Positions 5,501 through 11,500 of a stretch of DNA of 64,000 nucleotides are shown here, piece by piece (within the stretch, counting starts at the first letter, position 1; the number at the start of each line of letters is the position of its first letter). The translations under genes were made by a program, and so were the position numbers. The DNA is from Thermoanaerobaculia bacterium (GTDB taxonomy: Bacteria; Acidobacteriota; Thermoanaerobaculia; Gp7-AA8): assembly GCA_035627015.1 (NCBI GenBank), contig DASPMO010000039.1:11470-75469 (forward strand), written 5' to 3'. The notes below the pieces were generated by a model, which worked only from the letters and a program-made list of their open reading frames with translations, searched no databases and was not told the DNA's origin.

Positions 5501-8500
5501 CATCGTGGCCATCTTCGAGGCGCCGCAGATCGAGCAGCTCGCCAGGCGCATCGAGGAAACCTCGGGGCACACCGTCCGCCTCCCGCTGGTCCCCGTCGAC
5601 CGCACCGGCCCGCTGCCCCTCTCCTTCGCCCAGCAGCGCCTCTGGTTCCTGCACCAGCTCGAAGGGGCGAGCGACACGTACAACATCCGCTTCGCCGTCC
5701 GTCTGCATGGGCCGCTCGACGCGGACGCGCTGGTGGGCGCGCTGCACGCGATCGTGCAACGCCACGAAGTACTGCGCACGCGCTTCGAGGAAGTCGACGG
5801 CATGCCCGTGCAAGTCATTGACGAAGGCCGCGCGTTCCTCGTTCATCGAGAACGCTCCACTTCGATCGGAAACGTAGGGCGGGCTTCAGCCCGCCTCCCC
5901 CGGGGGCGGCGGGCTGAAGCCCGCCCTACGTCGATCGACGAAGAGGTGCACTACCGCTTCGACCTGAGCCGCGATGCGCTCTTCCGCGCCCTGCTCGTCG
6001 AAGAAGCGCCCGACGCACACATCCTCGTGCTCGTCCTCCATCACAGCATCGCCGACGGCTGGTCGATGGGCGTGCTGATGGACGAGCTGCTCGCGCTCTA
6101 CACCGGCAGGGCACTGAAACCGTTGCCGATCCAGTACGCCGATTACGCGCAGTGGCAGCGCCGGTGGCTCAGCGGCGACGTGCTCGAAGCCGAGACGGGC
6201 TACTGGAAGGAAGCGCTGGCGAATCTGCCGCCGCTGCTGGAGCTGCCCACCGACCGTCCGCGCCCGCCGGTGCAGAGCTACCGCGGCGCGCGCGAGCCGT
6301 TCCACCTTTCGGACGAGCTGGCCGCGCGGCTCAACGCCCTGAGCCGCAAGTCGGGCGCCACGCTCTTCATGACGCTGCTGGCCGCGTTCGACGTGCTCCT
6401 CAGCCGCTACAGCGGCCAGACCGACATCGCCGTCGGCACGCCGGTGGCGAATCGCACCCGTCCCGAGCTCGAGCCGCTGATCGGCTTCTTCATCAACAAC
6501 CTCGTGATGCGCGCGGACCTCGGCGGCGACCCAACCTTCGCCGCGCTGCTGGCCCAGGTCCGCGAGCGCGCCCTGCACGCGTACGCGCACCAGGACGTCC
6601 CGTTCGAGGTGCTGGTCGAGCAACTGAACCCGGCCCGCTCGCTCAGCTACGCGCCGCTCTTCCAGGTGATGCTGGTCCTGCAGAACGCGCCGTTTTCCGG
6701 CCTGCGCCTGCCCGGCCTGGAGATCACGCCGATCGAGCTCGAGCAGCGGGCCACGAAGGTCGACCTGACGCTGTCGCTCACCGAGACGGAGCGCGGCCTC
6801 GACGGCGTCCTCGAATACAGCACCGACCTCTTCGACCGCTCCACGATCGCGCGCTTCCTCGCGCACTTTACGCGACTCCTGGACGGCATCGTCGCCAACC
6901 CCGGGGAGCGCGTCAGCCGCTACGAGCTGCTGAGCGAGGCGGAGCGCGAGCAGGTCCTCGTGGAGTGGAATCGCCACGACATTCCCTACCCGCAGGACCT
7001 CACGCTGCACGGGATGTTCGAGGCGCAGGCGGAGCGGACGCCCGAGGCCGTGTCCATCGTCTACGAAGGCCAGGAGCTGACCTATCGCGAGGTGAACGCG
7101 CGGGCCAATCAGGTCGCGCACTCGCTGATCGCGCTCGGCGTGGGGCCGGAGACGCGCGTGGGTCTGAGCCTCGATCGCTCTCCCGAGCTGATCATCGGCC
7201 TCCTGGGCATCCTCAAGGCCGGCGGCGCCTACGTGCCGATCGACCCGAGCTATCCGAAGGCGCGCATCGACTACATCGCCGCCGACGCAAACGCGCGCTG
7301 CGTCATCACGAGGGAATCGTTCCGCGATCTGGACGCGTATCCCGATCACTCCCCCGCCGTCGGCGTGCTGCCGCAGAACCTCGCCTACCTGATCTACACC
7401 TCCGGCTCGACCGGACGCCCCAAGGGCGTGATGATCATGCATCGCAGCGTGGTCAACCTCACCTGGGCGCAGCAGAAGCGGCTGGAGGGTCTGACCGGCA
7501 CGCGCGTGCTGCAGTTCGCCTCGCTGAGCTTCGACACCTCGGTGTGGGAGATCGTGATGGCCTGGGGCCGCGGCGCGGCGCTCGTGCTCGCGCCGAAGGA
7601 ACGCCTCCTTCCCGGCCCCGACCTGGCCGCGGTCATGAACGAGGGAAGCGTCGACATCGCCACACTGCCGCCGTCCGCCCTAGCGGGACTCTCCCCTGAT
7701 TCGGTGCCGGGACTGAAGACGCTGGTCAGCGCGGGCGAGGCGCTGTCGCTGGCACAGGTCACGCCGTGGCTGAAGGGGCGCACCGTCTTCAACGGCTACG
7801 GCCCGACCGAGAACACCGTCGGCGCGGCCATCGGCCCGATCACCCCCGACGAGCCGATCACCCTCGGCCGCCCCTTCCCGAACATCTGGCTGTACGTGCT
7901 TGACCGTGCCCTGCAGCCGGTGCCGGTCGGCGTGGCGGGAGAGCTGTACGTCGGCGGCGCCGGTCTCGCGCGCGGCTACTTCGAGCGTCCCGACCTGACC
8001 GCGGAGCGCTTCCTCCCCAATCCGTTCGGACCGGCGGGGAGCCGCATGTACCGCACCGGCGACCTGGTGCGCCATCGCCCCAACGGCAAGGTGGAGTTCC
8101 TCGGCCGCACCGACCATCAAGTCAAGATCCGCGGCTTCCGCATCGAGCTCGGCGAGGTCGAGGCGGCGCTGGAGCGCCATCCCGCCATCGCTCAGGCCAT
8201 CGTGCTGGCGCGCGGCGACGACACGACGCGCCACCTCGTCGCCTACTTCACGCTCAAGGGAGAGAAGCCGTCCGCCGCCGACCTGCGGAGCTTCCTCAAG
8301 GAGACGCTCCCCGAGCACATGGTGCCGGGCTTCTTCGTCGCCCTCGACGCCTTCCCGCTCACGCCGAACGACAAGATCGACCGCGCCGCGCTGCCCGCGC
8401 CCGAGGTCGGGAGCGAAGAGTCGATCGCGCCGCGGACCCCGGCCGAGGAGACGCTCGCCGCGATCTGGCAACAAGTCCTGCGCGTGCCGCGCGTCGGCGT

Positions 8501-11500
8501 GAACGACAACTTCTTCGAGATCGGCGGCCACTCGCTCCTGGCCACGCAGACCATCGCCCGCGTCAACGACGCCTTCGCGCTGGCGCTGCCGGTGCGCGCG
8601 CTCTTCGAGGCGCCGGACATCGAGAGCCTGGCCCGCCTGATCGAAGAGACGGAGGCGCCGGGCCGGCGCACGCTCCCGCTCGTGCCAATCGACCGCGACC
8701 GGCCGCTGCCGCTCTCCTTCGCCCAACAGCGCCTCTGGTTCCTGAACAAGCTCGAGGGACCGAGCTACACGTACAACATCCCGGCCGTCTTCCGCCTGCG
8801 CGGCGCGCTCGACGCGGACGCGCTGGTGGCGGCGCTGCACGCCATCGTGCAGCGCCACGAAGTGCTGCGCACGCGCTTCGGGGAAGTCGACGGCGTGCCC
8901 ATGCAAGTCATCGGCGACGGCAGCGCGTTCGTAGTGGACCGCCGGCGTCACCGCCGGCGTCCCCGCCGGCTGTCCGTGGCGGCGTCCCGCCGCCACAGTG
9001 CGGGCGGGACGCCCGCACAGACAGCCGGCGGGACGCCGGCGGTCCACCACGATCCGCTCATCGACGAAGAGCTGCACCATCGATTCGACCTGAGCGGGGA
9101 CGTGCTCTTCCGCGCGCTGCTCATCGAGGAGGAGCCGGAGTCGCACGTCCTCGTGCTCAACCTCCACCACAGCATCGCCGACGGCTGGTCGATGGGGGTG
9201 CTGATGGACGAGCTGCGCGCGTTCTACACCGGTGCCGCGCTGCCGCCCCTCACCATCCAGTACGCCGACTTCGCGCACTGGCAGCGGGAGTGGCTGAGCG
9301 GCGAGGTGCTGGCGGCGGAGACGGATTACTGGAAGACCGCGCTGGCCAACCTGCCGCCGCTGCTGGAGCTGCCCACCGACCGTCCCCGGCCGCCGGTGCA
9401 GAGCTACCGCGGCGCGCACGAGCCGTTCCGGCTCTCCGCCGAGCTGACCGAAAAGCTCAACGCCCTGAGCCGCAAGTCGGGCGCCACGCTCTTCATGACG
9501 CTGCTGGCCGCGCTGGACGTGCTCCTCAGCCGCTACAGCGGCCAGACCGACCTCGCCGTCGGCACGCCGGTGGCAAACCGCACCCGTCCCGAGCTCGAGC
9601 CGCTGATCGGCTTCTTCATCAACAACCTCGTGCTGCGCGCGGACCTCAGCGGCGACCCGACCTTCACCGAGCTGCTGGCCAGGGTCCGGGAGACGGCGCT
9701 GCAGGCCTACGCGCATCCCGACGTGCCGTTCGAGGTGCTGGTCGAGCAACTGAATCCGGCGCGCTCGCTCAGCTACGCGCCGCTCTTCCAGGTCATGCTC
9801 TCGCTGCAGAAAGGACTCTTCTCCGGACTGCGGCTGCCGGGGCTGGAGGTCGAGCGGGTCCCGTTCGAGCAGCGGGCCACGAAGCTCGACCTGACCTTCT
9901 CCCTGAGCGAATCAGACGAGGGAATCCGCGGCATCCTCGAATACAGCACCGACCTCTTCGACCATGCCACGATCGAGCGGCTGCTCGCGCATTACACGCG
10001 GCTGCTGGAGGCGATCGTGGCCAACCCGCGGGAGCGCATCAGCCGCTACGAGCTGCTGAGCGAGGCCGAGCGCGAGCAGATTCTCGTGGAGTGGAACCGC
10101 CACGACCTCCCGTACCCGCAGGAGCTGACGCTGCACGGACTGTTCGAGGCGCAGGCGGAGCGCACGCCCGACGCCGTGTCGATCGTCTACGAGGGAGAGG
10201 AGCTGACCTATCGCCAGGTGAACGCGCGGGCCAATCAGGTCGCACACTCCCTGATCGCCCTCGGCGTGAAGCCCGAAACGCGCGTCGGCCTGAGCCTCGA
10301 CCGTTCCCCCGAGCTGATCGTCGGCCTCCTCGGCATCCTCAAGGCCGGCGGCGCCTACGTCCCGATCGACCCGAGCTATCCGCAGGCGCGCATCGACTAC
10401 ATCGCCGCCGACGCCAATGCCCGCTGCGTCCTCACCGAGGAGTCGTTGCGCGACCTCTCCGCGTGGCCCGAGCACTCCCCGGCCGTGCAGGTGCTGCCGC
10501 AGAACCTCGCCTATCTCATCTACACCTCCGGCTCGACCGGCCGCCCGAAAGGCGTGATGGTCCGGCACCAGGGCGTGGTCAATCTCACCTACGCGCAGCA
10601 GAAGCGGCTGGAGGGTCTGCCCGGCACGCGCGTGCTGCAGTTCGCGTCGCTGAGCTTCGACACCTCGGTCTGGGAGATCGTGATGGCCTGGGGCCGCGGC
10701 GCGGCGCTCGTGCTGGCGCCGAAGGAGCGCCTCCTCCCCGGCCCCGACCTCAGCGCCTTGATCAATGAGGCGCGGGTCGACATCGCCACGCTGCCGCCCT
10801 CCGCGCTGGCCGCGCTCCCGCCGGAATCGGTGCCGGGACTGAAGACGCTGGTCAGCGCGGGCGAAGCGCTGTCGCTGGCGCAGGTCACGCCGTGGCTGCA
10901 AGGCCGCACCGTCTTCAACGGCTACGGCCCGACCGAGAACACCGTCGGCGCGGCCATCGGCCCGATCGCCGCGGACGAGCCGATCACCCTCGGCCGTCCC
11001 TTCCCCAACATCACGCTCTACGTGCTCGACCGCGCGCTGCAGCCGGTGCCGGTCGGCGTGGCGGGAGAGCTGTACGTCGGCGGCGCCGGCCTGGCCCGCG
11101 GCTACTTCGAGCGTCCCGACCTGACCGCGGAGCGCTTCCTCCCCAACCCCTTCGGGCCGGCGGGGAGCCGCATGTACCGCACGGGCGATCTGGTCCGCTA
11201 TCGCTCGGACGGCAAGGTCGAGTTCCTCGGGCGCGCCGATCATCAGGTCAAGATCCGCGGCTTCCGCATCGAGCTCGGCGAGGTCGAGGCGGCGCTGGAG
11301 CGCCATCCCGCCGTCCACCAAGCCATCGTGCTGGCGCGCGACGGGCGGCTGGTGGCTTATTTCACCAGCAAGGATGAGCCGCCGGCGGTCGCCGAGCTGC
11401 GCGAATTCCTCCGGGAGTCGCTCCCCGAGCACATGGTGCCGAGCTTCTTCGTCGCGCTGGAGGCCTTCCCGCTCACGCCCAACGACAAGATCGATCGCGC

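Follow-up and report, generated by a model that had tools for sequence, protein, structure and literature searches.

The locus considered here raises the question of how two unrelated palindromes came to lie, in frame, within the same loop of two condensation (C) domains of one enzyme. The enzyme is a trimodular nonribosomal peptide synthetase (NRPS) encoded in a 64-kb stretch of DNA (64,000 nucleotides, referred to as the window) from contig DASPMO010000039.1 of a soil Thermoanaerobaculia bacterium (Acidobacteriota). The two palindromes, which we call E1 (in the second C domain, C2) and E2 (in the third, C3), are members of multi-copy palindromic repeat families. We consider it highly likely that they are non-autonomous repeats that entered the gene as independent and recent insertions, and that they have been kept by their frame, their stop-free reading and the disordered, tolerant loop in which they lie.

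In the mechanism that we propose, a dimer of REP (repetitive extragenic palindromic) units, GTAG-tagged and similar to a REPIN, and a ~98-nt four-hairpin palindrome would have inserted separately and recently into the NRPS gene. Both would have landed in the N-terminal lobe of their C domains, in the loop that follows a beta-strand (V-x-R-x-R) and leads into the short helix (IDEE-H), with the (R/P)FDL motif coming after that helix. Retention would follow from a combination of frame-preserving length, a stop-free frame and a disordered surface loop that tolerates added residues, and the GTAG element would probably have been mobilised in trans by a RAYT-type (REP-associated) tyrosine transposase. 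The features in question are as follows, with the kind of evidence for each in brackets.

2547..12473, plus strand: NRPS gene hosting both inserts, 3308 aa, C-A-T / C-A-T / C-A-T / TE, where A is adenylation, T the carrier and TE the thioesterase domain (translation, Pfam)
2769..2873, plus strand: equivalent loop and helix of C1, insert-free (alignment of C domains)
5838..5933, plus strand: C2 variable loop, 96 nt or 32 codons, from F to IDEE (translation of the open reading frame, ORF)
5870..5933, no strand assigned: E1, head-to-head GTAG-tagged REP dimer (inverted repeat, fold, depth step)
5862..5868 and 5931-5937, plus strand: TCGATCG direct repeat, putatively a target duplication or else belonging to a longer variant of the element (sequence, depth)
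8931..9059, plus strand: C3 variable loop, 129 nt or 43 codons, from F to IDEE (ORF translation)
8936..9045 (alternatively 8950-9045), no strand assigned: E2, copy of a ~98-nt four-hairpin composite palindrome (nested repeats, fold, depth, metagenome loci)
28095..28120, no strand assigned: intergenic singleton of the E1 REP, GCAGGGCGGGCTTCAGCCCGCCCTGC, a hairpin with an 11-bp stem (sequence match, fold)

The two inserts and their repeat families

The NRPS is a single ORF of 3334 codons spanning 2469-12473, with its called start at the ATG at 2547, and its product has three Pfam matches each to Condensation, AMP-binding and PP-binding and, at its end, one to Thioesterase. The Condensation match is to PF00668, and the HHxxxDG motif is present as HHSIADG. 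In C2, the AF codons (GCG TTC) end at 5837 and the ID codons (ATCGAC) begin at 5934; in C3, AF ends at 8930 and ID begins at 9060, and the sequence between them contains nested palindromes. Both inserts are read in frame and without stops in the one ORF, and E1 and E2 are the two strongest inverted repeats within the window. An earlier note on this DNA had given the same coordinates, lengths and translations, and these are borne out. The same note placed the two insertions at the same position. The loop is indeed the same, and the insertion points are about five codons apart: E2 starts directly after a pair of alternating arginine codons (x-R-x-R), six codons past AF, and E1 starts about five codons later than E2, after STSIG and ~11 codons past AF. 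Modules 2 and 3, which had been described as near-identical, share 79% identity in protein and ~90% in the DNA around the inserts.

Two superfamilies of REPs have been distinguished, one with a GTAG and one with a CGTC tag (Di Nocera, De Gregorio & Rocco 2013, BMC Genomics 14:522; PMC3733652), and a REPIN is a pair of REPs in inverted orientation that forms a hairpin and is associated with RAYTs (Bertels & Rainey 2011, PLoS Genet 7:e1002132; PMC3116915). E1 consists of a left REP (5874-5895), a palindromic 12-nt spacer (TCCCCCGGGGGC, 5896-5907) and a right REP (5908-5929) that is the reverse complement of the left one. The REP unit reads GTAG-GGCGGGCT-TC-AGCCCGCC, with the 8-bp stem and 2-nt loop of a GTAG-tagged REP stem-loop, and its GTAG ends point outward, as is expected of a head-to-head dimer. 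Together these parts form a 60-nt palindrome with 30-nt arms (5872-5901 and 5902-5931) that are 97% complementary, and the outer 24 nt are perfect, in agreement with the perfect 24-bp inverted repeat of the earlier note. When folded as single-stranded DNA, E1 yields -47.7 kcal/mol (z = -10.3 relative to shuffled sequences), forming the single hairpin that is characteristic of a REPIN.

The 22-mer GTAGGGCGGGCTTCAGCCCGCC, which we call REP1, has a chance expectation in the window of 0.00. It occurs twice in C2, where the E1 arms show 0 mismatches to the widespread 22-mer consensus, and once with one mismatch at 28095-28116. The singleton at the latter site, noted before as a free copy of the first palindrome, is thus present, but with GCAG replacing GTAG; it is self-complementary and lies 21 nt past the stop of the ORF at 26620-28074. 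An intrinsic terminator was considered for this hairpin and dropped because no T-run follows it. The G+C content at third codon positions (GC3) is 0.68 in E1, 0.87 in E2 and 0.93 in the NRPS gene; that of the window as a whole, over all positions, is 68.4%.

E2 has the form GGACC-hp-TGTCy-hp-A-hp-AGACA-hp-GGTCC, in which hp denotes a hairpin (8953-8970, 8976-8996, 8998-9018 and 9024-9040). The E2 region, folded as single-stranded DNA, yields -71.8 kcal/mol (z = -9.9 relative to shuffles). It also carries 12 extra nucleotides, ACCGCCGGCGTC, such that 8938-8949 equals 8950-8961. Two readings fit this arrangement. In the first, a full element begins at GGACC (8936) and contains a 12-nt slippage duplication between CCGCCGGC motifs that are 12 nt apart, and ~20 nt of the old loop have been lost. 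In the second, a 96-nt element (8950-9045, 32 codons) was inserted within a CAC codon beside ancestral DRRR codons (8937-8948), and these codons match the element's own first 13 nt.

A CGTC-tagged REP is described as having a terminal CGTC, an 8-9-bp stem that starts with A-T pairs and a CCA-like tail (PMC3733652). By these criteria E2 was ruled out as a member, its stems being all G/C (GCCGGCG, GTGCGGGCG) and its termini GGACC and GGTCC. In members of the E2 family GGAC or GTAC stands before the outer hairpin and the inner hairpins start with a paired GTGG; a canonical unpaired GTAG was not found in them. From these sequence features, E2 is probably best described as a REP-like composite without assignment to a REP family.

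The repeat nature of both elements is evident from sequencing depth. Logan contigs of the soil-metagenome run X1, a run that contains 83% of the words of the region, were placed on it, and a second run, X2, was used likewise. Unique NRPS flanks have a depth of 10-11x in X1 (11.5 beside E1), and the summed word depth is 12,000-17,000 exactly across 5870-5933; across E2, over 8950-9048, it goes up from 10 to values of 500-9,900. In X1, many contigs of kilobase length at ~10x terminate in E1 or E2 elements, running on into unrelated sequence. The depth step places the E1 border at 5870/5871 to 5931/5933, and over 5862-5869 and 5934-5941 the depth is about 10x above background. The TCGATCG copies on both sides of E1 may be a target duplication, such as would be expected of a miniature inverted-repeat transposable element; yet CGATCG is self-complementary and common to ~1% of family copies. 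Excision from C2 of 69 nt that include one TCGATCG copy leaves 9 loop residues before IDEE, compared with 10 in the orthologous locus L096 described below.

Matches elsewhere agree with the depth, and by both measures the palindromes belong to multi-copy families. Exact REP1 occurs in >94 reference-genome stretches among the matches listed, in many phyla and often as inverted pairs with a variable spacer. Its hosts include Rhodobacterales, Lysobacterales, Verrucomicrobiota, Planctomycetota, Nitrospirota, Cardiobacterium and Neisseria, and five of the loci listed are in metagenome-assembled genomes (MAGs) of soil Thermoanaerobaculia. By a crude test, 2 of 89 REP1 copies and 6 of 109 E2 copies lie within good ORFs. 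For E1, then, the high copy number (>94 stretches listed and a depth of 10^3 times that of the flanks) and the mostly extragenic distribution (2/89 in ORFs) are those of GTAG-tagged REPs. Among the matches listed, >118 stretches of metagenome sequence contain the E2 22-mer, and many of these stretches share the four-hairpin architecture. The canonical ~98-nt element, with four small hairpins in mirror order bounded by GGACC and GGTCC, is seen in dozens of metagenome loci and is very abundant in one JGI metagenome, Ga0196976. Its two-hairpin half-unit forms head-to-tail tandem arrays with a period of ~57-60 nt in four soil metagenome contigs (L155, L146, L123 and L201).

As side observations on REP1, the phyla and classes that carry GTAGGGCGGGCTTCAGCCCGCC at loci L002-L095 are Alpha-, Beta- and Gammaproteobacteria, Verrucomicrobiota, Planctomycetota, Nitrospirota, Acidobacteriota, Chloroflexota and one Firmicutes MAG, and the partner REPs in its dimers often have compensatory stem variants (GGCCGGGC..., GGGTGGGC...).

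The same loop and the same repeats in related synthetases

A protein search with C2 returned best matches that were ~55% identical and listed no protein longer than ~800 aa, the 3308-aa product of the window itself being absent too. Since long NRPS proteins were missing from this search, orthologues were reached via a neighbouring gene. The convergent A-domain-esterase fusion gene (12446-14647, minus strand) has ~40 orthologues (71-92%), and inspection of their contigs revealed an orthologous multimodular NRPS on three contigs and a partial one on a fourth. Loci L097, L099 and L104 yield no C-domain loop data because their contigs stop before the loops, and L103 has no NRPS beside the neighbouring gene. 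L105 has only a single-module NRPS with a C1-like loop, and L225 carries a different NRPS with an ordinary long helix. The informative loops are as follows.

L096, C2: VVRRQQGTVD (FVVRRQQGTVD, then VDAE), no insert
L096, C3: VVQRQRSSNPDAL (FVVQRQRSSNPDAL, then VDEE), no insert
L100, two domains: AVRRQRAADPHPL and AVRRRRTADPSPL (FAVRRQRAADPHPL and FAVRRRRTADPSPL, each then IDEE), no insert
L106: LVHREHLPTAGALTAL (FLVHREHLPTAGALTAL, then VDDE), no insert
Window: 32 residues in C2 and 43 residues in C3

At the C2 and C3 sites, the orthologous loops from F to (I/V)D(E/A)E in L096, L100 and L106 are therefore 9-16 aa long and empty, which is the presence and absence between related genomes that is expected of REPINs. 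We conclude that the elements were gained in the lineage of the window and, because E1 and E2 are unrelated, that they were gained separately, as the earlier note had supposed. The x-R-x-R codons after F-x-V are kept in all sequences, the window having HRER and DRRR and the orthologues RRQQ, QRQR, RRQR and RRRR.

Two orthologues have additions of another kind. In L102, all three elongation C-domain loops (15699-15732, 18720-18761 and 21738-21779) contain in-frame 9-nt arrays, (A/T)CCTATAGG x4-5, that are translated as repeats of TYR or SYR. Their core, CCTATAGG, is perfectly palindromic and AT-rich for its genome, and such arrays were not found elsewhere in the 22-kb L102 locus. The first C domain of L100 (codons 41-103 of the partial gene) has a loop that is 34 residues longer, KAERTPLAESAVRAQTSAAGHAGPPEASGRSSLVAG; this was not counted as a REP insert, its palindromicity being z = +0.56.

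An AlphaFold2 model of the C2 domain, built from a 52-sequence alignment, has a mean pLDDT of 88.2 and a pTM of 0.87. It adopts the canonical C-domain fold, with a Foldseek TM of 0.86 to the teixobactin synthetase Txo2 (6P1J). Residues 86-103 are the only long stretch with pLDDT < 50 and form a coil between the strand at 77-81 (VHRER) and the helix at 108-113 (IDEEVH), so that the E1-encoded segment is predicted to be disordered. Txo2 and most homologues have a longer helix in this segment, which is short and variable in the NRPS family of the window.

E1-type repeats also occur in frame at other sites. On either strand, stops close two of the three frames of the E1 dimer (TAG from GTAG and TGA from GCTGAAGC), and its only open frame, the one used in C2, encodes (N/D)VGRASAR...GRRAEARPT. 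The in-frame copies in L096, L102 and L005 described below use the open frame too and yield the same peptides. Because this frame sets the peptide, recurrence of the peptide needs no selection. In L102, a REP dimer lies in frame at 19003-19024 in the T-C linker of the orthologous NRPS (HVGRASARPGRAEARPTPVD). The L096 synthetase, whose C loops are empty, has single REP copies at 13331-13352, 14273-14294, 17318-17339 and 19436-19457. In two modules the REP lies in frame in the A-domain loop before LAYxxYTSGSTG, encoding VLN[VGRASARP]PGVAV, and in two modules it lies in an A-subdomain loop on the other strand and in another frame, encoding [GGLKPAAP]. The occurrence of the same junctions in two modules each suggests that module duplication or conversion followed insertion.

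More distant proteins carry such copies too. In the IcmF-like fused mutase of Luteimonas gilva (L005, 3272-7030), the stretch that separates the B12-binding domain from the MeaB domain holds an in-frame REP1 dimer, and in a 4211-aa trans-AT polyketide synthase (PKS) ORF (L196, 2-12634) an E2 copy lies in frame near the enoyl-CoA hydratase region. Within the window and the orthologous loci, independent in-frame REP1 events number four in ~35 kb of NRPS coding sequence and none in the remaining coding sequence of ~180 kb (p about 0.001 by Fisher's test, from an approximate count). This excess is consistent with a tolerance of linkers and loops in modular enzymes.

Other features of the window may be recorded here. 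A ComM/YifB protein has homologues that are 77-91% identical, and all named ones are from Thermoanaerobaculia or Acidobacteriota. Around the NRPS, a larger biosynthetic cluster (12446-40000) includes the A-domain-esterase fusion, an acyl-CoA dehydrogenase, a PLP enzyme, a free carrier protein, radical-SAM and B12-radical-SAM enzymes, an aldehyde dehydrogenase and an A-T-FkbM methyltransferase protein. A core of this cluster (B3_4, rSAM, PCP, PALP, ACAD and A-esterase) is kept in relatives beside NRPSs of 1, 3 and 4 modules. Intergenic inverted tandem-heptamer arrays at 55581-55690, (GAGCGAT)n opposite (ATCGCTC/ATCGTTC)n, are 91-93% complementary, and a smaller (GTTGCTG)n pair lies between two ABC-transporter genes at 53729-53807. 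Heptamer runs that resemble these arrays adjoin an E2 copy in metagenome locus L157.

Targeting, function or tolerance

The occurrence of two unrelated elements at most about five codons apart in paralogous loops could mean that the loop is a true targeted hotspot, either through Arg codons (CGC CGG CGx) that look like the REP stem GCCGGCG or through recognition of local sequence by a transposase or recombination pathway. Tolerance by itself would then not account for the presence of both inserts in this loop. We regard this as unlikely, even though several observations are in its favour. On its left side, the high-depth part of E2 adjoins 13 nt (GACCGCCGGCGTC, 8937-8949) that repeat the element's own terminus exactly and that keep register with the x-R-x-R codons in every orthologue (in L100, for instance, GTG CGC CGG CGC CGT). 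This match between the E2 terminus and neighbouring Arg codons hints that insertion may have been homology-assisted. The CCTATAGG arrays in all three C domains of L102 and the one L100 loop with 34 added residues, which show that the loop is clearly variable, likewise speak for targeting. However, the long L100 loop is non-palindromic, the flanks of E1 and E2 differ, and the 12-nt border repeat of E2 is explained equally by slippage between CCGCCGGC motifs inside the element. The REP is also in frame at no fewer than three other kinds of site in orthologous NRPSs (the A-domain loop, the A-subdomain loop and the T-C linker) and within unrelated proteins, and if the classes of permissive site number ~10-20, a double hit in one of them is only mildly improbable. 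Selection for tolerated sites is thus favoured over targeting of the loop; the insertion hotspot of the earlier note was an overstatement, since tolerance explains the positions equally well.

A bolder proposal, which seems to us a long shot, is that REP-type elements in these Acidobacteriota actively home to REP-like strings of Arg codons (CGCCGGCG) in megasynthase genes, making the loop a genuine mutational hotspot. If this were true, identical palindromes in the loops and linkers of NRPSs and PKSs would be substrates for recombination and slippage that speed module diversification.

The inserts might also have been domesticated, either as Arg-rich peptides that serve docking or solubility or as hairpins that tune translation pausing, mRNA stability or inter-module recombination. 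The ORF is unbroken through both inserts, the hairpins are very stable, and REP-decorated megasynthases recur within the lineage and beyond (L096, L102 and the trans-AT PKS of L196). We nevertheless judge domestication to be very improbable. The sites are empty in all orthologues examined, the sequence is at consensus and unadapted to host codon usage, the C2 insert is predicted to be disordered, and the peptide is imposed by the repeat's only open frame. The E2 peptide was given no real relative by phmmer; this search, with 41 aa against 1.84 billion representatives, returned one match, to an unrelated repetitive protein, and is uninformative. The consensus arms of E1, its low GC3 relative to the gene and its predicted disorder fit a recent, neutral passenger, and nothing points to the function implied by the term coding domestication in the earlier note.

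That an assembler spliced repeats into the NRPS contig is scarcely credible, despite the short-read metagenomic source, the repetitive nature of NRPS modules in themselves and the lack of any contig that crosses a whole palindrome, because four junctions are matched without mismatch by independent Logan contigs and two again in the second run, a second assembly yields the identical protein, random chimeras would seldom be in frame and stop-free twice, and in-frame copies exist in separately assembled orthologues. The X1 contigs that join unique coding sequence to repeat arms with 0 mismatches cover 5500-5897, 5904-6254, 8261-8979 and 9021-9380; those of X2, also with 0 mismatches, cover 8696-8979 and 9020-9196 (two of the four junctions). 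The junction contigs have the organism's own depth, and the one at the left of E2 contains the 12-nt repeat. ENA contig ERZ27257321 k141_659489 encodes an identical NRPS product and differs from the window at one of 22,473 bases.

Several points nevertheless weigh against the view that E1 and E2 are independent, recent and tolerated insertions. No single contig or read crosses either palindrome from flank to flank, and the Logan contigs break at the palindrome centres, so that the internal arrangement of the inserts rests on the assemblers. The exact borders of both elements are uncertain, E1 having TCGATCG copies on its two sides and E2 a 12-nt repeat. The copy number in the source genome is derived from metagenome depth and may include other organisms. 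Mobilisation of E1 by a RAYT is inferred, with the 64-kb window as the only part of the genome considered, the inserts are presumed to be neutral for the enzyme, and their expression is predicted from the ORF. Two other checks that the earlier note proposed agree with insertion into a tolerant loop: orthologous C2 and C3 loops do not carry the same sequence but are short and empty, and on the AlphaFold model the C2 insert maps to a disordered coil.

Relation to known elements and significance

In-frame palindromic insertion is a documented phenomenon. The 2013 catalogue (PMC3733652) lists intragenic REPs in several species, more than half of which are dimers or groups that encode 20-30 aa, and its authors propose flexible linkers of modular proteins as intragenic REP sites. 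Its supplement includes a REP dimer within the P. syringae NRPS Psyr_1958 and, in family GTAG-5, inserts in Thioalkalivibrio UvrA (VGRASARHAAASTGTASRAEARP) that encode the same peptides as E1, VGRASAR...RAEARP. E1 resembles these intragenic REPs in its GTAG tag, short GC-rich stem, 2-nt loop and head-to-head dimer. In contrast to that work, Acidobacteriota and Thermoanaerobaculia are not among its REP-bearing species, and here two families occupy the same loop of paralogous domains and empty orthologous sites are documented. As with REPINs (PMC3116915), E1 has two inverted REPs and a spacer, forms one long hairpin and is present or absent between related genomes; REPINs, however, were defined as extragenic elements with 71- or 110-bp spacings and a cognate RAYT, whereas E1 is intragenic and has a 12-nt spacer.

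The comparison with Rickettsia palindromic elements (RPEs) that the earlier note drew is apt for behaviour, in that both are in-frame palindromic repeats in ORFs that probably still encode working proteins, to which they add a surface segment. It does not extend to family membership: RPE-4 and RPE-6 are CGTC-tagged (PMC3733652), whereas E1 carries GTAG and E2 neither of the two tags. There is no relation in host, base composition or sequence, and the resemblance is one of behaviour, no RPE sequence having been aligned. With clustered REPs of the BIME (bacterial interspersed mosaic element) type, E2 shares small GC-rich hairpins that alternate in orientation and form a mosaic, and half-units in tandem arrays; unlike them, it is a fixed ~98-nt four-hairpin palindrome, GGACC...GGTCC, and no match to a described family was made. 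Intragenic REP dimers, including one in an NRPS, having been catalogued in 2013, what this case adds is the presence of two families in one loop of paralogous domains, the documented empty sites, the acidobacterial host and the recurrent decoration of megasynthases. The inserts look to be tolerated rather than useful.

For NRPS engineering, these findings point to a natural insertion-tolerant loop in LCL-type condensation domains, which has accepted +22 and ~+30 residues with the ORF intact and whose length ranges from 9 to 43 residues among orthologues. Further tolerant positions are the A-domain loop, the A-subdomain loop and the T-C linker. For annotation, segments rich in Arg, Ala and Pro in the megasynthases of REP-rich, high-GC soil lineages can be repeat DNA and not evolved sequence, and the REP1-encoded peptides, including GGLKPA, are diagnostic of an E1-type REP. 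The range of intragenic REPs is extended to Acidobacteriota, and a four-hairpin repeat of ~98 nt, abundant in soil metagenomes, is described.

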